NCBI GenBank assembly: GCA_028277685.1
Contig: JANQFT010000356.1
Coordinates: 1 to 10,822 of the forward strand
Source of the DNA: Phycisphaeraceae bacterium
GTDB lineage: Bacteria > Planctomycetota > Phycisphaerae > Phycisphaerales > Zrk34
Direction: 5' to 3'
DNA: 10,822 bases
Part shown: in pieces, positions 1 to 9,622 of the stretch
Position numbering within the stretch: position 1 is the first letter of the stretch
How the letters are laid out: each line of letters opens with the position of its first letter
Made by a program: the position numbers and the translations under genes
The notes under the pieces: model-generated
The model's database searches: none
What the model was told of the DNA's origin: nothing
What the model saw: only the letters and a program-made list of their open reading frames with translations

Positions 1-37
1 TGGCGGGGCGGCGCTCTGCCGGTTGAGCTACAGCCGC
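1..37 (-). tRNA. 5' portion (acceptor 5' strand, D-arm, start of anticodon stem) of a tRNA gene that continues beyond the window start; isotype undetermined
   Basis: Reverse complement of 1..37 reads GCGGCTG-TA-GCTC-AACCGGCA-GAGC-G-CCGCC..., a canonical acceptor/U8/D-stem-loop layout. The D-arm closely resembles the Ala tRNA at 3399..3470. The anticodon lies outside the window. Confidence 0.5.
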
Positions 38-46
38 AAGGAGAAA

Positions 47-86
47 GGCCGCCGCGCGACCTGTATCGCGCGGCGGCCGATCAGGC
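47..86 (-). terminator. Putative intrinsic terminator of the SPFH gene: perfect 12-bp GC-rich inverted repeat followed by a U-rich tract on the minus strand
   Basis: The + strand reads ggccgccgcgcg-acctgtat-cgcgcggcggcc, a 12-bp perfect stem with an 8-nt loop. On the minus strand the hairpin is followed by UUUCUCCUU. It sits immediately 3' of the SPFH stop. Confidence 0.45.
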
Positions 87-1235
87 ATCTTCATCTTCCA
101 TCATCGAGCGGAAACCGCAGCTGTTCTCATCGGTGGTCAGGCTTCGCACCTGCTCGACCAGGTCGCCCTTGCCGAGCACGAACGTTGCCTTCACGCCTTT
201 GAGTACTTCGCCGATTGCTTCCAGTTCGCGCATACGCGCGAGGGTGGGGTTGTCGGCCAGCAGCTTCGCGGTGTTCGCCTGGCTACGCGCCGCGGCGGTG
301 TCTTCACGACGTCGGATCAGGTTCGCTTCCGCCTGCTTCTGTGCGAGGATCACCTCGTTCAGAATCGACTTCATTTCACCGGGCAGGATGATGTCGCGCA
401 GGCCGATGCTTCGCACGACCACGCCGAACTCCGCCGCACGCGACGCCAGGGCGTTACGTACTTCGTTGCCCACTTCATCCTTATCCGACAGCAGCTTCTC
501 GAGCAGGCGGCCGCCCACCGCTTCACGTAGCACGAGCTGCGCTTCACGGTACAGGGCCTGGGCGTAATCGCTTACCACGGTGGCTGCCTTCACTGCATCG
601 ATTACCTGGTAAGTCACCACCAGGTTGACGCGAAGGGTTACTTTGTCGTTGGTCATGATTTCCTGACCCGCAACGTCGGCAACCTGTTCACGCAGATCGA
701 TGATCTTGCGCTCGATGCGGCCGGCACCGCGCCAGTAGACGTGCTTGCCTGCCTCCAGTTGCGCTACCTGTTTACCATCTCGATACAGCAGCACGGTTTC
801 ACCGGGCTCAATAGTCACGCCGTCGAACCAGTTCGATGCGCCCTGCATCGCGAGGATGGGCTCAATCTTGTTGTGTTCGAAGACGAAGTCGTTCACGTCG
901 TAGACTTCCACGTCGATCTTTGCTGGCGCTTTCCAGAACGCGTGGCGACCGGGACCAATCACCCAGCCGATACGGCCGTCCTTCCAGATAAGCGCTCGCT
1001 GGTTGTCGGTCAGATCAACCACTTCCAGGTGCGACGCGACCACGTGTTCGTCGACGAGTAAGTCGATGAGTGTATGCTCGAACTTCGTGTCCAACTTGTT
1101 GACGATGTGAACGCGATTGCGTCCGAACCAGTTGAACCATTGGCGGTACTTGCCCGGTTCGAGCAGACGGTGGAAATCGCCGTGGCGGAACCACAGGCCG
1201 ACTTCGTGTTTACGGATGCGAAGTGTTTTGAACAT
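81..1235 (-). CDS. SPFH/band-7 (stomatin/slipin-like) domain protein, ~385 aa, no obvious N-terminal transmembrane helix, N-terminal region with three copies of a ~45-aa beta-motif
   Basis: The ORF 81..1667 is open upstream, but only the ATG at 1233-1235 has a strong RBS (ccaaaAGGAGccaggacc-ATG). The upstream extension is low-complexity R/G/P-rich and overlaps a tRNA. The protein shows band-7 hallmarks: ...QEIMTNDKVTLRVNLVVTYQVID..., a coiled-coil C-terminal part (LAQKQAEANLIRRREDTAAARSQANTAKLLADNPTLARMRELEAIGEVLK), and three repeated ExG..W.R.G...PG.H.W motifs at the N-terminus. Confidence 0.8.
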   Translation of the reverse strand: MFKTLRIRKHEVGLWFRHGDFHRLLEPGKYRQWFNWFGRNRVHIVNKLDTKFEHTLIDLLVDEHVVASHLEVVDLTDNQRALIWKDGRIGWVIGPGRHAFWKAPAKIDVEVYDVNDFVFEHNKIEPILAMQGASNWFDGVTIEPGETVLLYRDGKQVAQLEAGKHVYWRGAGRIERKIIDLREQVADVAGQEIMTNDKVTLRVNLVVTYQVIDAVKAATVVSDYAQALYREAQLVLREAVGGRLLEKLLSDKDEVGNEVRNALASRAAEFGVVVRSIGLRDIILPGEMKSILNEVILAQKQAEANLIRRREDTAAARSQANTAKLLADNPTLARMRELEAIGEVLKGVKATFVLGKGDLVEQVRSLTTDENSCGFRSMMEDEDA

Positions 1236-1584
1236 GGTCCTGGCTCCTTTTGGGAGTGAGGTGTGTGAATCACGCGTGAACACCACGGCGTGTTGTGATA
1301 AGAAAAGCGGCGGGCCGGAGCGCAACGCATCACGCCCGTTGACCCCGTCATCAACAACGGCGTCGACTTGAGCGGCGGCCTGAAGCGTGCAGACGTCAAA
1401 CAGCCGCACGCCGCGAAGCGCCCTCCCCCCTGAGGGCAAAAACTTCGTCGGCGTGGGGCCGAATGACCGCCACGCGGTACCGCCGCGGTATCCGTCGAAC
1501 GACATGGCTGTGATGTCGGTGTTGCACAAGGCAACCGGTCGGGGCGATCGCGTGCATCCCGACCCGCCTGTTGGTGCCCTTAAC

Positions 1585-1635
1585 CGAGGGCCTTCGAGGG
1601 GACTTGAACCCCGAGGGTGGATAACCCTGCCATGG
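1585..1635 (-). other. tRNA-like remnant: T-arm-like hairpin (GGGG-TTCAAGT-CCCC) plus a short upstream hairpin; does not complete a cloverleaf
   Basis: The reverse complement contains ...AGGG-TTATCCA-CCCT-C-GGGG-TTCAAGT-CCCC-TCGAAGGC. No pairing 5' acceptor strand is present and there is no variable-region spacing. It abuts the 3' end of the tRNA at 1636..1708. Confidence 0.25.
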
Positions 1636-1708
1636 TGTGCGAGGCTGGATTCGAACCAGCTACCCATCGATCCTTAGTCGATTGCTCTACCTAATGAGCT
1701 ACTCGTGC
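1636..1708 (-). tRNA. tRNA, anticodon AAG (loop CTAAGGA), class-I (5-nt variable loop), A73; isotype uncertain (Leu-box anticodon on a non-Leu-type scaffold)
   Basis: Hand fold: acceptor GCACGAG/CTCGCAC with two adjacent A.C/C.A mismatches at 2:71 and 3:70. D-arm GCTC-ATTAGGTA-GAGC is perfect, anticodon stem ATCGA/TCGAT is perfect, and T-arm GCTGG-TTCGAAT-CCAGC is perfect. Confidence 0.6.
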
Positions 1709-1805
1709 ACATCACCTGAACCGGTCGAACCCGTGTCGCGGAATACATGTCGACAAAGTCTTGTGCACCGCCGGACGATACCGGTGACTGCTGAAGCAAA
1801 AGGAA

Positions 1806-1878
1806 CACGCGCGGCAGGAATCGAACCTGCATATGATGGTTTTGGAGGCCACCGCTCTTCCAATTGAGCTACGCACGT
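1806..1878 (-). tRNA. tRNA-Trp (anticodon CCA)
   Basis: Acceptor ACGTGCG/CGCGCGT (one G-U). D-arm GCTC-AATTGGAA-GAGC. Anticodon loop CTCCAAA is identical to the E. coli tRNA-Trp loop, with a C31:A39 mismatch as in known Trp tRNAs. T-arm GCAGG-TTCGATT-CCTGC, discriminator G. Confidence 0.85.
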
Positions 1879-1889
1879 ACTTCGGGCAA

Positions 1890-1962
1890 CTGCCCCGACT
1901 GGAATCGAACCTACACCCTTCGGGTTAAAAGCCCGATGCTCAGCCATTCGAACTCCAGGGTC
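1890..1962 (-). tRNA. tRNA-Lys(TTT)-like; anticodon arm, T-arm and 3' acceptor strand present, 5' third (acceptor 5' strand and D-arm) does not pair - probably degenerate/pseudo
   Basis: Anticodon stem TCGGG/CCCGA is perfect with loop CTTTTAA (TTT). T-arm GTAGG-TTCGATT-CCAGT has 2 G-U and 1 mismatch. The 3' acceptor is CGGGGCA+G, but the 5' region (…GACCCTGGAGTTCGAATGGCTGAGCA) has no matching TGCCCCG and no GCTC/GAGC D-stem. It lies 12 nt from tRNA-Trp. Confidence 0.45.
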
Positions 1963-2025: not shown

Positions 2026-3258
2026 TCAATCCTTGTAGGGATCGAACTCATCCTCACCGGCCATGGCCACGCCGATGGGGGTGAGGGTGTGGATGATACG
2101 CACTGTTGAGCCGTGCGCTTCGAGTACTTCGGGCAGGCGCTTGTAGCAGTGGGGCGATTCATCGGTGCCCGCGCCCCGCAGTTCAACGCCGGCTTTGTGT
2201 ACCCAATCCATCATCATCTCACGCGAGATCTGGCCTTCGCTTTTGCGAACGAAGCCGCGCGCTTTCTTTGACCAGCGTTTCTTGCCAGCCGCTTGCGTAC
2301 GACTCATCACACGGCCGGCGCCGTGCACGGTCGATCGCAGGGCCATAACACTGTCTTCGCTGTCCATACCTTCAAGGATTACCGAAATATCGCCCATCGA
2401 ACCGCCTACGAATCCGCGTTGACCGGGAAACGCCGGCGTTGCGCCTTTGCGAACGATCCAGACATCGAGTTCGCAGTTGTCGATGAGGTGCGTTTCCTTC
2501 CACGCGTAGTTGTGATGGTTGTGTACCTCTTCAACAATGCGCGTTTCCAGCAGGCGGGCTACCTTCTGGCAAACCCAGTCGCGACCGGCATACGCATATT
2601 CCCCAGCCAGTTGCATGCACTGCAGATACTCCGCTCCGAGATTGGAATGCTCGTGGAACACAACCGGTTCAACGTGCATGCCGTCGGCACCACCACCTTT
2701 CTCGATAAAGAATGAAGCGATCTTGTGGCCGAGTCCGCGGCTGCCGAAGTGCACACCGCACCAGACGCGGTCTTCCTCATCAATGAACAGGTCAACGTAA
2801 TGGTTGCCCGAACCCACCGTGCCCAACTGTTCACGAGCCAGGTTTTTCAGGTTACGGTTCTTCGGACCTGTTATGCGCAACTGCTCAATCAGTTTCCAGG
2901 TTTCATCATCGAACAGTTCGTGGTCAACTTGCTCCTGGTTCTTTCGACCAACGCCGAACGAAATGCTCTTGAAGATCATGTTCATGATCTTGGCGATGTC
3001 GCGTCGCACGTCCTCGGCTTTGACGTCCAGTCGCACTGCTTTGTTGCCGCATGCGATGTCGTAACCAACACCCGAAGGTGAAACCATACCGTGGTAGGCC
3101 ACTACACCCCCGATCGGCATCGCGTAGCCCAGGTGGTGATCGCCCATCAGTGCGCCTGCCGCAGCATCCTTGTTTGCCAGACAAGTCTTGATCTGACGAA
3201 CTGCGCCTTCGTCCGGTTCACCCCAAACGGGTACGTTATCGATATTCGTGTAAGCCAT
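2026..3258 (-). CDS. rtcB: RtcB-family RNA 3'-phosphate/5'-OH ligase (RNA-splicing/repair ligase), 410 aa
   Basis: Full-length ORF with RBS GAGGTGcagc-ATG. RtcB hallmark motifs are present: ...GDHHLGYAMPIGGV..., ...DIACGN..., ...TVGSGNHYVDLF..., ...STVHGAGR..., with conserved His/Cys metal ligands and a length typical of RtcB. tRNA genes lie 52 nt upstream and 64 nt downstream on the same strand. Confidence 0.9.
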   Translation of the reverse strand: MAYTNIDNVPVWGEPDEGAVRQIKTCLANKDAAAGALMGDHHLGYAMPIGGVVAYHGMVSPSGVGYDIACGNKAVRLDVKAEDVRRDIAKIMNMIFKSISFGVGRKNQEQVDHELFDDETWKLIEQLRITGPKNRNLKNLAREQLGTVGSGNHYVDLFIDEEDRVWCGVHFGSRGLGHKIASFFIEKGGGADGMHVEPVVFHEHSNLGAEYLQCMQLAGEYAYAGRDWVCQKVARLLETRIVEEVHNHHNYAWKETHLIDNCELDVWIVRKGATPAFPGQRGFVGGSMGDISVILEGMDSEDSVMALRSTVHGAGRVMSRTQAAGKKRWSKKARGFVRKSEGQISREMMMDWVHKAGVELRGAGTDESPHCYKRLPEVLEAHGSTVRIIHTLTPIGVAMAGEDEFDPYKD

Positions 3259-3309
3259 GCTGCACCTCGCAAACTCATCATACGTGTGTTGTTGTTTCTA
3301 TTCTGTGAA

Positions 3310-3382
3310 AGCATTGTGTTGGAATCGAACCTGTGACCTTCTGGACCCAAACCGGACGCTCGGCCGATTGAGCTTCGCTCTG
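3310..3382 (-). pseudogene. tRNA-Pro(TGG)-like unit with intact 5' two-thirds but non-pairing 3' T-stem/acceptor strand (degenerate or chimeric tRNA)
   Basis: 5' acceptor CAGAGCG, A8A9, D-arm GCTC-AATCGGCC-GAGC perfect, anticodon stem TCCGG/CCAGA (1 mismatch), loop TTTGGGT (TGG). The T-loop TTCGATT is flanked by ACAGG on the 5' side and CCAAC on the 3' side, which do not pair. The 3' tail ACAATGC cannot pair with CAGAGCG. Confidence 0.4.
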
Positions 3383-3398
3383 GATAGAATGTCCGTAA

Positions 3399-3470
3399 TG
3401 GAGCCGCGGGGAGTTGAACCCCGATCATCCGGGTGCAAGCCGAGCGCTCTGCCAATTGAGCTACAGCCCC
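3399..3470 (-). tRNA. tRNA-Ala (anticodon TGC)
   Basis: Acceptor GGGGCTG/CGGCTCC with the diagnostic G3:U70 wobble. D-arm GCTC-AATTGGCA-GAGC. Anticodon loop CTTGCAC. T-arm CGGGG-TTCAACT-CCCCG, discriminator A. Confidence 0.85.
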
Positions 3471-3556
3471 CTGCTACGCCAAGGCTTCGCAGGGCTACGC
3501 GCACCTTCGCGTCATACGAAGTAGTGCGCGTTCTGCGAAGCTTCAGCGAAGCAGAA

Positions 3557-3630
3557 TGTCGCCGGAAGGATTCGAACCTTCACTGTCAGCCATCTCATGA
3601 CTGCGCCTCTGCCAGTTGGGCTACGACGAC
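3557..3630 (-). tRNA. tRNA, anticodon GAG (loop ATGAGAT), class-I, A73; member of a three-gene paralogous family; isotype uncertain
   Basis: Acceptor GTCGTCG/CGGCGAC (1 G-U). D-arm GCCC-AACTGGCAG-AGGC. Anticodon stem CAGTC/GGCTG. T-arm GAAGG-TTCGAAT-CCTTC is perfect. Variable loop is 5 nt. It lies 5 nt from the next tRNA. Confidence 0.6.
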
Positions 3631-3635
3631 GAGAA

Positions 3636-3709
3636 TAGCCCGGGTGGGAGTCGAACCCACAACTCACCAGTTTTAAGCCGGCGTCCTCTGCCAGTTGGGA
3701 TACCGAGCC
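3636..3709 (-). tRNA. tRNA, anticodon TAA (loop CTTAAAA), class-I, A73; paralog of 3557..3630 and 3712..3785; isotype uncertain
   Basis: Acceptor GGCTCGG/CCGGGCT (2 G-U). D-arm TCCC-AACTGGCAG-AGGA (T at position 10). Anticodon stem GCCGG/CTGGT. T-arm GTGGG-TTCGACT-CCCAC is perfect. 2-nt spacer to the next tRNA. Confidence 0.6.
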
Positions 3710-3711
3710 AA

Positions 3712-3785
3712 TACCGCCGACTGGATTCGAACCAGCACTGCACCGATTCTGAGTCGGTTCCCTCTGCCAGTTGGGGTACGACGGC
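3712..3785 (-). tRNA. tRNA, anticodon CAG (loop CTCAGAA), class-I, A73; paralog of the two preceding tRNAs; isotype uncertain
   Basis: Acceptor GCCGTCG/CGGCGGT (2 G-U). D-arm CCCC-AACTGGCAG-AGGG (C at position 10). Anticodon stem ACCGA/TCGGT is perfect. T-arm GCTGG-TTCGAAT-CCAGT. Variable loop GCAGT. Confidence 0.65.
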
Positions 3786-3867
3786 GTTAGTTATTTGGTG
3801 ATCTGGTGACTGGCGATTTCGTAATTTGATATTGCAGGCCGCACAAGACATTGCGCGAGGCGCGAAG

Positions 3868-3940
3868 CTGGGTTGGTGGGATTCGAACCTGCAAAAGCCG
3901 GATTCGTAATCCGGCGCCCGTCCAATTGAGCTTCGGGGTG
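3868..3940 (-). pseudogene. tRNA-Arg(ACG)-like unit; D-arm and anticodon arm perfect, but 3' T-stem half and acceptor 3' strand do not pair (degenerate or chimeric)
   Basis: D-arm GCTC-AATTGGAC-GGGC. Anticodon stem CCGGA/TCCGG is perfect with loop TTACGAA (ACG). The T-loop TTCGAAT has GCAGG on the 5' side but CCCAC on the 3' side. The 3' tail CAACCCA cannot pair with the 5' CACCCCG. A8A9 replaces U8. Confidence 0.4.
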
Positions 3941-3948
3941 GAGGCGAA

Positions 3949-4021
3949 AGCCGCAGGTCGGCGTCGAACCGACAACCTGCTGTTTACAAGACAGCTGCTT
4001 TGCCATTTGAGTTACTGCGGC
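3949..4021 (-). tRNA. tRNA-Thr (anticodon TGT)
   Basis: Acceptor GCCGCAG/CTGCGGC is perfect. Anticodon stem GCTGT/ACAGC is perfect with loop CTTGTAA. T-arm GTCGG-TTCGACG-CCGAC is perfect. The D-stem is weak. Confidence 0.8.
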
Positions 4022-4036
4022 AATGTGAAAACCAAA

Positions 4037-4110
4037 CGGCACCGACGGGATTCGAACCCGCGACCTCTTCCGTGACAGGGAAGCGCTCAGCCAAACCGAG
4101 CTCCGGCACC
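4037..4110 (-). tRNA. tRNA-Asp (anticodon GTC)
   Basis: Anticodon arm CTTCC-CTGTCAC-GGAAG. Variable loop plus T-arm AGGTC-GCGGG-TTCGAAT-CCCGT are nearly identical to E. coli tRNA-Asp. Acceptor GGTGCCG/CGGTGCC, discriminator G. Confidence 0.9.
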
Positions 4111-4235
4111 AGGCGAATCGCGGAGAGCAAACGCTCCACCGTCGGGCCACTGCGCTGTCGAACGCATGAAAAAATTTGACAGTGTCTATGCCACGATCCG
4201 TGTCGTCTACTTCTGCTGAAATGAATCAACAGCAA

Positions 4236-4306
4236 TTGACCCGGCAGGATTCGAACCTGCGTCCACCGATTATCAGTCGGCCGCTCATCCACTGAGCTAC
4301 GGGTCA
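4236..4306 (-). tRNA. tRNA-Ile (anticodon GAT)
   Basis: Acceptor TGACCCG/CGGGTCA is perfect. D-arm GCTC-AGTGGAT-GAGC. Anticodon stem GCCGA/TCGGT with loop CTGATAA, as in E. coli Ile. T-arm GCAGG-TTCGAAT-CCTGC, A73. Confidence 0.85.
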
Positions 4307-4400
4307 AGGACAGGCTCAGAGCGCACGCGCTCCAAGCCGTTGCATCCATCCGCTGTTCACTTGTCAAAGATCACTGCGCTGCAAGCAGCGCCCAAGGCAA

Positions 4401-4472
4401 TGGCTGGTCTCGGAGTTGAACCGAGGTCTCCCGCTTTTCAGACGAGCGCTATACCGACTGAGCCAACCAGCC
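4401..4472 (-). tRNA. tRNA-Phe (anticodon GAA)
   Basis: Acceptor GGCTGGT/ACCAGCC is perfect. D-arm GCTC-AGTCGGTA-TAGC, matching the Phe-type AGUCGGUAGAGC. Anticodon loop CTGAAAA. T-arm CTCGG-TTCAACT-CCGAG is perfect, A73. Confidence 0.85.
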
Positions 4473-4481
4473 GTATGTGAA

Positions 4482-4554
4482 TCGCCACGGTGGGATTCGA
4501 ACCCACGCACTCCTCTTTGTAAGAGAGGCGCTCTGGCCACTGAGCTACGCGGCA
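4482..4554 (-). tRNA. tRNA-Val (anticodon TAC)
   Basis: Anticodon arm CCTCT-CTTACAA-AGAGG is perfect and identical to the E. coli Val loop. T-arm GTGGG-TTCGAAT-CCCAC is perfect. D-arm GCTC-AGTGGCCA-GAGC, A73. 9 nt from tRNA-Phe. Confidence 0.85.
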
Positions 4555-4631
4555 AGATGTTCGCGCACCGATCGCGCATCCATGTCGGCCACGGCTTACA
4601 CCACCAACGGGTGTGCACGCTTCAGTTTCAA

Positions 4632-4704
4632 TGGCGGTGGCAGGATTTGAACCTGCGATCTCCGGGACATGCGCCCGGTGAGGATTCCGCTCCTCTACAC
4701 CGCA
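4632..4704 (-). tRNA. tRNA-Met (anticodon CAT) with initiator-like features (TTCAAAT T-loop, GGG/CCC anticodon stem, unpaired 1:72) but G at position 33
   Basis: Acceptor TGCGGTG/CACCGCC with a T1.C72 mismatch. D-arm GAGG-AGCGGAAT-CCTC. Anticodon arm CCGGG-CGCATGT-CCCGG. T-arm GCAGG-TTCAAAT-CCTGC, A73. Confidence 0.65.
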
Positions 4705-4705
4705 A

Positions 4706-4776
4706 TCGCGACGGTTGGATTTGAACCAACACCTTTCCCTTATGAGGGGAGTGCTCTGCCATTGAGCTACATCGCG
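4706..4776 (-). tRNA. tRNA-Met (anticodon CAT; loop CTCATAA), T-loop TTCAAAT; first gene of the array within this window, 1-nt spacer to next tRNA
   Basis: Acceptor CGCGATG/CGTCGCG (1 G-U). D-arm GCTC-AATGGCA-GAGC. Anticodon stem CTCCC/GGGAA (4 bp + mismatch) with loop CTCATAA. T-arm GTTGG-TTCAAAT-CCAAC is perfect, A73. Confidence 0.8.
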
Positions 4777-4922
4777 CGAGCTATTTACTTGTCAAAGGCC
4801 CAATCTTATGCGGCGAACGCGATATACATCCCACAGCAACACGAGGCCGAATATGCCTGAAAACACAGGCAAAACGCACACGATGCACCACCAGCAACAG
4901 GATGTCATTCGGTGTTGGCCGG

Positions 4923-5141
4923 TTACCCGATGGCTCGTGCGAGTTGCGCGGCTAAGTGCCGTTTATCGCATCTGCCCTGGAACCTGGCCCCGGTATCCTG
5001 TTGCCCGGCGGATATGCCGTTCGGATAACTCGGGAGCCCGCCGACCGCGCTCTTCAAAAGAGCAAACGCGGCAGACGCGCTGAACAGCATCACGCCGGAT
5101 AGGCGTTCAAGGCATGTCATGTTGTGCTGTGCAGCGTTCAT
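4923..5141 (-). CDS. Hypothetical small protein (72 aa) with a hydrophobic segment (VMLFSASAAFALL); doubtful
   Basis: The ORF track is the only support. The RBS is weak (GAGGcaggtaaccg-ATG) and no homology was recognised. It lies in an otherwise non-coding 900-bp gap. Confidence 0.2.
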   Translation of the reverse strand: MNAAQHNMTCLERLSGVMLFSASAAFALLKSAVGGLPSYPNGISAGQQDTGARFQGRCDKRHLAAQLARAIG

Positions 5142-5687
5142 CGGTTACCTGCCTCAAAGAAGAGGACGTTAAAGTATCAAGGTGGGAAATGTATCGGCGC
5201 AACAGGCGCGATGCAATAACTTTCTTATAGATTGAATCGAAAAAGTTCGTGCGTGCGTTCGTAAGTCTCAAACTTTGAGATTCTGGAGAATTGAGAATCG
5301 CACATGAGTGGTTGGCCCGAAGCATCCGTAAGTGTCAGCCGAAGTAAACGGGAACCGAATGAGCCAGACTTCGTAGTAAAGTGCCTGGTCTGATTGATGC
5401 CTGTCAACGCTGTTGCGGTGTTCCATCACTCCACAATCACATCCGCCGCCCCGTGTGAGCAGCTGCCACGTTCGTTGAACTCTCGGCGCCGATGGTCGAT
5501 GGGTTTTCGTCCTTTACCAGGTTTTGGGCAATGGCCATGACGACGCAGAATCGTATGGATCGCAGTCTTGTCGACAGGGCAGCCGAATTCGCCAGCGGTT
5601 CGTCGCGTGCCCCACAGTCAATTCTCCCCGGCTATGCGGAAGATCAATTCAATACGCTCGTGCGCTGATTCGCAATCGGTGAACCGG

Positions 5688-8207: not shown

Positions 8208-8588
8208 TCAGGTGCGGATAACGCCATCGCCATCCCGAAGGTCTTCTGATGACTGGTTGTCCTTCCACAGGAAGACCTGCCCTTTGATCAGACAGCATTG
8301 GCGGTCGACCGAAGCGATGCGTTGCATCTGCTGATCGCTGAGTGGCGGACTGAGCGCAGCTTCCATATTCGCCAGGTCATTCCGGGGTGTGGTGGAGAAT
8401 GGGATTGGCACCTGACCCCGCTGGATGGCCCACTTCACGCAGAGCGTGGTGGGGTGAAGATCGAGTTCCGCAGCGATCTCAATGAGCACCTGACGGTGAC
8501 CCGGCTGGGGAACATCAAAACTGTTCATCTCGACTGTCCAGTTACCCGGCAGGATGGCTCCAGTCATTTGGCTGGGGTGTGAAGACAT
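8208..8588 (-). pseudogene. C-terminal fragment (~100-125 aa) of an aldo/keto reductase (DkgA/YvgN-like); N-terminal two-thirds missing - gene remnant
   Basis: The translation ...RQVLIEIAAELDLHPTTLCVKWAIQRGQVPIPFSTTPRNDLANMEAALSPPLSDQQMQRIAS... aligns with the AKR C-terminus (…[54 protein letters not shown]…). The ORF is only 127-142 aa, versus ~275-320 aa for a full AKR. The space where the N-terminus should be is occupied by the divergently oriented araC-family gene. Confidence 0.5.
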
Positions 8589-8758
8589 CATGATCTCCGG
8601 CCGAGGCGACGAAGGGCAACGGGCAATGACAAACAACCGCCCCCTGAATGATCGATGATGGAGCCGTGGAACGGAATGACAGGAGTTGACGAGATAATAG
8701 CAATTCTTGACACTGTTTAAGCGACTTACTGACTCCGAAATCGACCCGTGAGTGCGAT

Positions 8759-9622
8759 ATGGCCGAACCCAAGCCCACGCCTGACTTTCTTTCTAAGCAA
8801 GTCCGCGAGGCGCGATACTACTTTCTGGATGCGCCTGGATCATCGCGTGCGCCGCTCCGTGTGATATGCGGTGGATGCGAATACTGTCAACCCGATTACC
8901 GCGTGCAACGCAGAACCTTTGAATATCATTGCATCGAATACGTCATGCGGGGTCGCGGCCATCTCATGCTTGCCGGCAAGCAGTACAAGCTCCGCCCGGG
9001 CATAATGTTCAGCTATGGCCCCGGTATTTCCCATATCATCCGGGCTGACCCGGATGACCCTCCCACCAAGTACTTCGTTGATTTCACCGGACGCGGTGCG
9101 AAGCAACTGCTTCAATCGGCAGACCTTCCCTGTGGTTCGTGCCGAGCGCTGCCTCCCGTCAGCCAAGTCCACGAGTTGATGGAACTGCTGATCAGCAATG
9201 GTTCGCGACAAACACCACAGACCGCCGAGGTTTGCCGAACCTTGCTGCGACTGATCGTACTCAAGATGGGAGAACCTGCGGCGGCTTCTCCCGAAGACCC
9301 CACCGGCGCTCATGAAACATATCTGGCATGCCGAGCAATTCTTGACCAGCACTTCCTCAAGCTGCGATCCCTCGAAGACCTGGCCACCCGTTGCAGCATC
9401 GACCCTGCCTACTTGTGCCGACTGTTCAAACAGTTTGACAGTTGTTCGCCTTACCAGGCGCTGCTTCGCCTGAAGATGAACTACGCGGCCACCGCCCTGA
9501 TTAAATCGGGCCGGCTTGTGAAGCAGGTTGCTCGTGAGGTTGGCTATGAAGATCCCTATCAATTCTCGCGCATCTTCAAACGCGTGCATGGTTCAAGCCC
9601 GAAGGCGTTCATGGATGGCTAG
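8759..9622 (+). CDS. AraC/XylS-family transcriptional regulator (N-terminal cupin-like sensor domain + C-terminal HTH), 287 aa
   Basis: C-terminal AraC-type HTH signature: ...LEDLATRCSIDPAYLCRLFKQF...VAREVGYEDPYQFSRIFKRVHGSSPKAF. The N-terminal ~150 aa matches the AraC ligand-binding fold pattern. It is adjacent to a xylanase gene, which fits a sugar-utilisation regulator. Confidence 0.85.
   Translation: MAEPKPTPDFLSKQVREARYYFLDAPGSSRAPLRVICGGCEYCQPDYRVQRRTFEYHCIEYVMRGRGHLMLAGKQYKLRPGIMFSYGPGISHIIRADPDDPPTKYFVDFTGRGAKQLLQSADLPCGSCRALPPVSQVHELMELLISNGSRQTPQTAEVCRTLLRLIVLKMGEPAAASPEDPTGAHETYLACRAILDQHFLKLRSLEDLATRCSIDPAYLCRLFKQFDSCSPYQALLRLKMNYAATALIKSGRLVKQVAREVGYEDPYQFSRIFKRVHGSSPKAFMDG

Follow-up and report, generated by a model that had tools for sequence, protein, structure and literature searches.

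Why would a gene for an RNA ligase lie in the middle of a row of tRNA genes, and what would the two have to do with each other? The question is raised by rtcB, which occupies positions 2026 to 3258 of the minus strand in a 10,822-nucleotide (nt) stretch of DNA, contig JANQFT010000356.1 of the Phycisphaeraceae bacterium assembly GCA_028277685.1; the whole of this stretch is referred to here as the window. An earlier reading, based on the letters of the window alone (the sequence-only reading), had described a lone rtcB inside a same-strand tRNA array as a candidate module for tRNA supply and tRNA healing. The best explanation of the locus, which we consider probable though by a modest measure, is that rtcB is a fixed, co-oriented cargo of a long tRNA array of the L-array type, with spare tRNAs and the re-sealing of cleaved tRNAs by RtcB restoring the tRNA pool.

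Long tRNA arrays, a class of elements passed on by horizontal transfer, are puzzling; their sole experimental model, that of Anabaena, points to survival of translational stress. L-arrays, defined by Santamaría-Gómez et al. (NAR 2021; PMC8421152), consist of many closely spaced tRNA genes in one orientation (up to 43) that have spread horizontally as supernumerary tRNA operons, and Planctomycetes are among the phyla listed. The same study reports that rtcB, an HNH endonuclease gene, and other genes are often linked to or inside cyanobacterial L-operons, that translation inhibitors induce Anabaena rtcB together with the trn operon, and that the array tRNAs are cleaved under stress; it proposes that RtcB repairs tRNAs cut by stress-induced toxins. 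A single repressor, TrcR, was described in 2023 as controlling the Anabaena trn operon, rtcB, the HNH gene, and a slipin (SPFH) gene (PMC10272220), and according to a survey of jumbo phages, RtcB or Rnl ligases supplement the tRNAs of phages and join cleaved tRNAs again (PMC7824862). The pairing that the sequence-only reading had called largely undescribed is thus already in print for cyanobacteria and phages.

A complete RtcB within a same-strand tRNA array

The 410-amino-acid (aa) product of rtcB matches the Pfam RtcB family (PF01139) over model positions 16 to 424 of 426 (E = 3.4e-67, 228 bits) and the RtcB structures 4dwr, 1uc2, and 7lfq in the PDB (E ~1e-28). Alignment to the Pyrococcus horikoshii RtcB structures, together with motif positions, finds the metal-binding and catalytic set complete, with D67 and C70 in GYDIACGN, N152 and H153 in GSGNHY, H170 in HFGSRGLGH, H249 in HNHHNY, and the nucleophile H312 in VHGAGR; we take the P. 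horikoshii counterparts to be D95, C98, N202, H203, H234, H329, and H404, respectively. The ratio of nonsynonymous to synonymous substitution rates (dN/dS) is 0.10 to 0.13 against four close homologues, with dS near saturation, and the gene is under purifying selection. The protein belongs to the RtcB RNA ligase family, with ligase activity predicted, as the earlier reading had held. Neither rtcA nor rtcR occurs among the open reading frames (ORFs) of the window, and the description of a lone rtcB also stands.

The gene is surrounded by 13 intact tRNA genes called by ARAGORN between positions 1633 and 4776, all on the minus strand like rtcB itself and scoring 45 to 69 bits in Rfam, which bears out its placement inside a same-strand array. 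Together with three decayed tRNAs and one truncated tRNA, they lie on one strand within 4.8 kb, and the array represents nine amino acid specificities (Met, Val, Phe, Ile, Asp, Thr, Leu, Ala, and Trp). The elements of the array are as follows.

4706..4776, minus strand: tRNA-Met(CAT), first tRNA of the array in the window (ARAGORN; Rfam 69.2 bits)
4631..4705, minus strand: tRNA-Met(CAT) (ARAGORN, Rfam)
4481..4555, minus strand: tRNA-Val(TAC) (ARAGORN, Rfam)
4401..4472, minus strand: tRNA-Phe(GAA) (ARAGORN, Rfam)
4235..4307, minus strand: tRNA-Ile(GAT) (ARAGORN, Rfam)
4036..4111, minus strand: tRNA-Asp(GTC) (ARAGORN, Rfam)
3949..4021, minus strand: tRNA-Thr(TGT) (ARAGORN, Rfam)
3875..3945, minus strand: decayed tRNA-Arg(ACG)-like remnant, a pseudogene (Rfam 24.1 bits, below threshold, model positions 7 to 64 only; syntenic with the tRNA-Arg(ACG) of relatives)
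3712..3785, minus strand: short tRNA (74 nt), Leu anticodon CAG, lacking a long variable arm (ARAGORN, alignment)
3635..3710, minus strand: short tRNA with anticodon TAA, ortholog of the Leu(CAA) of relatives with C34 changed to T (ARAGORN, alignment)
3557..3630, minus strand: short tRNA with Leu anticodon GAG (ARAGORN, alignment)
3399..3470, minus strand: tRNA-Ala(TGC), nearest intact tRNA upstream of rtcB, at 140 nt (ARAGORN, Rfam)
3311..3385 (about), minus strand: decayed tRNA-Pro(TGG) remnant, 52 nt upstream of rtcB (alignment to orthologous tRNA-Pro genes)
2026..3258, minus strand: rtcB, RNA 3'-phosphate/5'-OH ligase, 410 aa, intact (Pfam match, catalytic residues, GAGG Shine-Dalgarno sequence upstream)
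1891..1962, minus strand: degenerate tRNA with TTT anticodon, Lys-like and a probable pseudogene, 63 to 64 nt downstream of rtcB (Rfam 31.9 bits; alignment to orthologs)
1805..1879, minus strand: tRNA-Trp(CCA), nearest intact tRNA downstream of rtcB, at 146 nt (ARAGORN, Rfam)
1633..1708, minus strand: tRNA with anticodon AAG, in a slot whose anticodon shifts across relatives (ARAGORN, alignment)
1..37, minus strand: first 37 nt only of tRNA-Gly(GCC) (92% identity to positions 13549 to 13585 of the related locus L083, the start of its tRNA-Gly(GCC))

No tandem periodicity was found in the array besides the motifs shared by tRNAs, and by its sequence the array fits the L-array class in being long, same-strand, non-periodic, and diverse in its isoacceptors. 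Since positions 1 to 37 are the start of a tRNA-Gly(GCC), the array is cut by the contig end, and the window holds the proximal two-thirds of an L-array-type array.

The two elements closest to rtcB had been read as tRNAs 52 nt and 64 nt away; tRNA-like elements do lie at those sites, but both are decayed. Compared with orthologous tRNA-Pro genes, the Pro(TGG) remnant has lost the 3' strand of its T stem and its acceptor strand, and it yielded no ARAGORN call and no Rfam match even at E <= 10. The TTT element clears the Rfam threshold of 29 bits and is rejected by ARAGORN; its position 8 is G where U8 would be expected, its acceptor stem has two mismatches, and its T stem is weakened. On these grounds the Lys-TTT-like gene that had been put forward as a target of PrrC is probably a pseudogene. 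The window copy of the array is eroding. Besides the three tRNA pseudogenes, it has lost the HNH gene and several tRNAs present in related arrays, the segment that would hold HNH, Pro, His, and Gly having collapsed by deletion to ~140 nt.

The position of rtcB is fixed among related arrays

Loci and contigs of relatives that were compared with the window carry labels such as L083. The RtcBs closest to that of the window are 74 to 83% identical to it and all 410 aa long, one of them labeled Planctomycetota, and 10 loci of this clade, the window included, had usable context. In nine of the 10 (the window, L001, L083, L085, and L147 to L151), rtcB lies inside a homologous array of 13 to 36 tRNAs, or 21 to 36 when the window is set aside. 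The typical 5' half runs leader ORF, Met-Met-Val-Phe-Ile-Asp ... three or four Leu, Ala, HNH gene, Pro, His, (Pro), Gly, and rtcB, and is followed by Lys, (Thr), Arg, Asn, Trp, a variable tRNA, SPFH gene, Gly, Cys, Ser, Tyr, Glu/Gln, and a MerR-like gene. Six loci (L001, L083, L085, L148, L149, and L151) have tRNA-Gly(TCC), or whichever tRNA fills its slot, before rtcB and tRNA-Lys after it. The gene rtcB stands at the corresponding place in L147, where a Glu tRNA precedes it and the SPFH gene is absent, and in L150, where Lys tRNAs are found on both sides and neither HNH nor SPFH was called. The L085 array covers all 20 amino acids. Homology between the window and L083 stops near window position 5155, and the flanking genes differ at every locus. 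This constancy of position, read from the sequences of the clade, indicates that the link between rtcB and the array is not accidental.

Array tRNAs are only ~65% identical to the tRNA of the same anticodon outside the array. Members of one HNH endonuclease family are embedded in 18 related arrays from several phyla, among them L001, L083, L147, L148, L151, and IMG/VR contigs.

Linkage of rtcB to tRNA arrays recurs in separate lineages

Among the genome loci of this RtcB subfamily, 24 of 83 have at least 3 tRNAs within 10 kb, and mostly 16 to 36. Arrays of 10 to 32 tRNAs with rtcB in or beside them were found, among the 80 best genome matches to the window RtcB, in Armatimonadota (L031 and L038), in Bryobacterales (L058, L070, and L071, as well as L068, a short case with 3 tRNAs flanking rtcB), and at many loci of Acidobacteriaceae/Terracidiphilus. 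The rtcB of Bryobacterales is embedded in the array and co-oriented with it, whereas that of Acidobacteriaceae points, together with the DUF6847/DIP1984 gene downstream of it, away from the array, whose start lies ~500 bp off. The arrays of these two groups are clearly homologous in tRNA order, and the different placement of rtcB in them argues for repeated linkage. Six IMG/VR contigs (L093, L134, L125, L103, L096, and L143) also have rtcB within tRNA clusters. L093 resembles the Bryobacterales array in tRNA order and rtcB position and has multiple phage-type HNH genes interspersed, and the PHROG "tRNA splicing ligase" family matches an RtcB homologue from a viral contig. Looked for comparatively, the co-localization of tRNA array and rtcB recurs not just within the clade but in three further bacterial groups and on IMG/VR contigs.

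In a neighbor-joining tree, array-linked RtcBs were monophyletic in 0 of 200 bootstraps, and each array-linked group joined the non-array RtcBs of its own phylum with 81 to 100% support. A single traveling lineage of array plus rtcB is thereby ruled out, and the lack of monophyly argues for functional coupling. The sequence-only reading had held that placement with core chromosomal RtcBs would speak against an origin as mobile cargo; in part this is what the tree shows, since array-linked RtcBs nest in phylum-typical clades and do not form one mobile lineage.

The same clustering with same-phylum, non-array RtcBs would be expected if an array had by chance come to lie around or next to an rtcB already resident there, with no functional coupling, and a locus of the same RtcB clade that has no tRNAs (L081, see below) also fits this account. 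We regard such neutral linkage as very improbable. The linkage is seen in at least four separate RtcB lineages, on IMG/VR contigs, and in cyanobacteria (PMC8421152), and the position of rtcB is fixed in the nine Planctomycetota-type loci despite their different flanks. Moreover, tblastx comparison of array with non-array loci in Terracidiphilus, Bryobacterales, and Armatimonadota found that they share rtcB and not the flanks, which rejects insertion of an array beside a resident rtcB at a fixed chromosomal site; for Terracidiphilus, the common part consists of rtcB and the DUF6847 gene.

A DUF6847/DIP1984-family gene lies immediately downstream of rtcB in Acidobacteriota, in array-linked and array-free loci alike (L033, L037, L039, L042 to L046, L048 to L051, L054, and L056). 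Outside arrays, no conserved protein partner of the RtcB subfamily was found besides lineage-local synteny. Two metagenome-assembled genomes each hold two separate rtcB-linked arrays (L042 and L050 in Terracidiphilus; L058 and L070 in Bryobacterales), reflecting either multi-copy arrays or a mixture of strains in the bin.

A specialized cargo directed against defense systems or toxins, carried by a mobile element or left by a prophage, is a further candidate, in which array and RtcB would counter anticodon nucleases (PrrC, RloC, PARIS/retron effectors, and colicins). It would account for the genomic context that differs in each relative (with homology to L083 ending at ~5155), for the homing-type HNH endonuclease embedded in related arrays, and for the phage-like IMG/VR contigs with homologous arrays and rtcB, and pairs of phage tRNAs and RNA ligases are an accepted idea of counter-defense (PMC7824862). 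We nevertheless think it unlikely. No integrase, transposase, or phage structural gene occurs in the window or the examined flanks, and the whole window had no megablast match in collections of phages and plasmids, which sets aside a phage or plasmid origin of the window. The GC content shows no difference from the flanks, array-linked RtcBs resemble the RtcB of their own phylum, and the Lys-TTT tRNA cited in favor of this role is the probable pseudogene described above. Membership in a known defense system was likewise rejected, PADLOC having no match for RtcB, the SPFH protein, or the leader ORF. A role against anticodon nucleases is plausible as an inference, to which nothing in the window speaks directly.

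A probable tRNA-supply and sealing function and its alternatives

If rtcB is cargo of an L-array, as we favor, the array and rtcB would be expressed together when translation is compromised by translational stress or tRNase attack, by analogy with the Anabaena data. The array would flood the cell with replacement or decoy tRNAs, and RtcB, with GTP and Mn2+, would re-join tRNA halves bearing 2',3'-cyclic-phosphate or 3'-phosphate and 5'-OH ends, so that a restored tRNA pool would be the joint outcome of array tRNAs and RtcB sealing. Cyclic-phosphate and 5'-OH ends are the products of metal-independent endoribonucleases, among them toxin-antitoxin RNases, anticodon nucleases, and colicin-like toxins. 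The mechanism is drawn from established RtcB chemistry and from the Anabaena data, and the retention of rtcB at one array position within the clade, together with the other linked lineages, makes a module of tRNA supply and sealing a reasonable reading. To this extent the module first proposed from the sequence holds up, although its argument from Lys-TTT and PrrC rests on a decayed tRNA.

Several observations weigh against this explanation. L081, whose RtcB is a close homologue (81% identity), has no tRNAs nearby and no tRNA remnants were found around it, so RtcB of this clade is not obligatorily bound to an array. With the window copy eroding, the module may have kept only part of its function. 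Near rtcB, neither an RNase toxin nor an anticodon nuclease was found in the window or in the relatives' flanks that were examined, and a sigma-70 promoter scan gave no matches. Finally, the substrates of bacterial RtcB are not settled, 16S rRNA and other RNAs having also been reported.

This last point bears on the possibility that RtcB serves in ribosome or mRNA repair, for instance of cleaved 16S rRNA, and is tied to the array only through shared regulation under translational stress. Work cited in PMC10272220 and PMC9304027 connects bacterial RtcB with the re-ligation of 16S rRNA and its PrfH-associated paralogue with the repair of ribosomes, and the co-located SPFH and MerR-like genes are not specific to tRNA. 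The window RtcB, however, scores 81.9 bits against a cutoff of 271.8 for TIGR03073 (release_rtcB, PrfH-associated), no prfH-like ORF is present in the window, and the repeated embedding of rtcB among tRNAs, in several lineages as well as in the tRNA clusters of phages, speaks for tRNA as the substrate. We judge repair of this kind distinctly improbable.

RtcB is the tRNA splicing ligase of archaea and metazoa, and some array tRNAs of Acidobacteria and Bryobacterales are oversized (79 to 95 nt), raising the idea that RtcB is a maturation or splicing ligase for interrupted, permuted, or intron-containing array tRNAs. This idea is largely refuted, and we give it almost no credence: the intron mode of ARAGORN places the extra nucleotides in long variable arms and not in anticodon-loop introns, all tRNAs of the window are contiguous and 71 to 76 nt long, and no splicing endonuclease is present.

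With tRNA supply and sealing kept as the preferred explanation, what the analysis contributes beyond prior work is a new lineage, a fixed module architecture, and evidence for repeated independent linkage. RtcB is a fixed internal component of long tRNA arrays in a second lineage, unrelated to the cyanobacterial model, and distinct lineages of RtcB have become linked to arrays on phage-like contigs and in at least four groups of bacteria; fixed position and repeated linkage together strengthen the case for tRNA supply and sealing as one functional unit. The idea of the pairing is not new, and the gain is one of breadth and of a better-defined module, not of principle. Its main value is comparative, in the non-monophyly of array-linked RtcBs and in a compact Planctomycetota-type module (leader ORF, tRNAs, HNH, rtcB, SPFH, and MerR-like genes) suited to experiment and tractable as a unit to be challenged, in a heterologous host, with anticodon nucleases, toxin RNases, and translation inhibitors.

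Other genes and signals of the module

The remaining large ORFs of the window encode an SPFH/Band 7 protein, a GH10 glycoside hydrolase, an AraC regulator, and an LptD_N-like protein. Those features that belong to the array are the following.

4923..5141, minus strand: small leader ORF ahead of the array (conserved part 5141..5076, ~22 codons, with Shine-Dalgarno sequence; hairpin at 5081-5065)
4780..4797, minus strand: motif CTTTGACAAGTRAAYAGC, copy 1, containing TTGACA and abutting tRNA-Met, candidate promoter or operator
4352..4369, minus strand: motif CTTTGACAAGTRAAYAGC, copy 2, 45 nt upstream of tRNA-Ile(GAT), syntenic in three relatives
81..1235, minus strand: SPFH/Band 7 protein, 384 aa (start corrected to M145 of the long ORF 81..1667)
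47..78, minus strand: hairpin of 14 pairs behind the SPFH gene, strong and terminator-like

In nine of nine loci (the window, L001, L083, L085, and L147 to L151), the array is headed by an ATG with a Shine-Dalgarno sequence and by ~22 codons that are conserved (MN(T)KQ(H/Q)NLNxxERT...). Past these codons conservation ends, and every locus has a GC-rich hairpin of differing sequence, which is terminator-like in the window. Judged by this layout, the leader ORF and hairpin could be a leader-peptide attenuator or a sensor for the array.

The 16- to 18-nt motif CTTTGACAAGTRAAYAGC occurs twice in the window, and 0 of 200 shuffles yield two copies. It recurs 45 to 73 nt upstream of tRNA-Ile(GAT) at the syntenic site in three relatives, copies of it lying at L083 7025-7040 and 7455-7470, L085 7915-7930, and L001 7207-7222, and is a candidate internal promoter -35 element or operator. 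The motif TTGACAAGT was set aside, its conservation being limited to Planctomycetota-type arrays. A weak hairpin follows rtcB at 2006-1983, and no terminator-like site was found between tRNA-Ala and rtcB.

The SPFH gene is held at the same array position in most of the related arrays examined (L083 12329-13486, L085 12587-13717, L001 12731-13900, L148 12506-13681, and L151 10018-11145), its products being 376 to 391 aa long and 62 to 72% identical between loci. It was rejected as a universal array component, having been seen in Planctomycetota-type arrays only. The distal end of the array in relatives is closed by a MerR/BldC-like helix-turn-helix gene of 65 to 72 aa (L083 14108-14314, L085 14614-14811, L147 6410-6628, and L001 14844-14966), which lies past the contig end of the window and is a candidate regulator of the module. 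The L151 array has genes for a TROVE/Ro60-like protein and, between tRNAs, for an Endonuclease V-like protein (3032-4372 and 8490-8999); a TROVE/Ro60-like protein is a known partner of RtcB in RNA repair operons such as Salmonella rsr-rtcBA.

Noncanonical tRNAs of the arrays

tRNAs with Leu anticodons (CAG, GAG, CAA, TAA, and TAG) are just 73 to 76 nt long in the window, L001, L083, L085, L147 to L151, and L038, with a variable loop of 4 to 5 nt, a 3-bp D stem, and A73, whereas bacterial tRNA-Leu is typically long-armed. In 23 copies taken from two phyla, 99% of the stem cells are paired and compensatory changes occur at 15 of 20 pairs, which shows that the fold is under selection. The Leu(TAA) of the window (3635-3710) represents an anticodon shift by point mutation within the array, and the long-arm Leu(TAA) of relatives is absent.

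Just upstream of the SPFH gene is a tRNA slot whose scaffold is common to most relatives and whose anticodon varies between loci: AAG in the window and L148 (11984-12058), ATG in L150 (10440-10528) and L151 (9459-9530), GAT in L085 (12061-12133), GAA in L001 (12157-12232), and GTC in L083 (11859-11938). AAG and ATG, both with A34, are unusual anticodons for bacteria. Arrays of Acidobacteriaceae and Bryobacterales include Lys(TTT), Ile(TAT), Arg(ACG/CCG), and Asn(GTT) tRNAs of 79 to 95 nt with class-II-like long variable arms and encoded CCA (L036, L037, L039, L042 to L046, L049 to L052, L058, L059, L070, and L071), tRNA-Ile(TAT) being common among them.

These parts can be assembled into a bolder and doubtful proposal, in which the L-array, rtcB, HNH, SPFH, and MerR-like genes would make up a self-contained, horizontally mobile "translation-rescue island." RtcB would have entered it through at least four independent captures, in different phyla and in phages; the conserved leader peptide and hairpin would sense ribosome stalling and switch the island on; and the noncanonical tRNAs (short-arm Leu and the slot of shifting anticodon) would be nuclease-resistant substitutes or decoys. 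If true, it would amount to a defined anti-tRNase system, beyond a mere supply of spare tRNAs.

Comparison with known systems

Arrays on integrative elements of Acidithiobacillus ferrooxidans and those of Mycobacterium are supernumerary and horizontally acquired, as the window array probably is, and are reported to be poorly expressed under standard conditions (cited in PMC8421152). Unlike the A. ferrooxidans type of element, no integrase or conjugation genes were seen here. With regard to RtcB itself, we know of no association of rtcB with the A. ferrooxidans or Mycobacterium arrays.

The enterobacterial rtcBA-rtcR and rsr-yrlBA-rtcBA operons share with the window the RtcB catalytic residues and a presumed role in the repair of stress-cleaved tRNA, and the TROVE/Ro60-like gene of the Salmonella operon has its like in the L151 array. 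Those operons are protein-only, whereas the window rtcB is embedded among tRNA genes, accompanied by neither the RtcA cyclase nor the sigma-54 activator RtcR, and its product scores far below the cutoff of the E. coli-type RtcB equivalog (NF007153; 107.3 bits versus 407).

Phage tRNA clusters with RNA ligases (RtcB, Rnl1, and Rnl2, as well as T4 Pnkp/Rnl1 versus PrrC) likewise supply tRNAs and seal cleaved ones, and have HNH or homing endonucleases interspersed with their tRNAs. They differ in that the window has no phage genes or similarity to sequenced phages and its flanks are ordinary chromosomal ones (GH10 and AraC), and in that the heal-and-seal pathway of T4 uses a kinase/phosphatase step whereas RtcB seals directly.

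The closest likeness in kind is to the L-arrays of Anabaena and other cyanobacteria. These too are long, non-periodic, same-strand arrays of diverse tRNAs, some of them pseudogenes, with embedded or linked protein genes that include rtcB and, as in the relatives of the window, an HNH endonuclease; a gene of SPFH/slipin type belongs to the same functional set (compared at the level of family, Anabaena alr0740 being of the slipin family; PMC10272220), and a distribution that is probably sporadic would be consistent with horizontal transfer. The phylum of the window is different, probably Planctomycetota. In Anabaena, moreover, rtcB and the slipin gene lie elsewhere on the chromosome and are tied to the array by the shared ribbon-helix-helix repressor TrcR, whereas no TrcR-like gene was seen in the Planctomycetota-type module, which in relatives has a MerR-like gene at its distal end and holds rtcB, SPFH, and MerR-like genes physically inside one module, at fixed positions.

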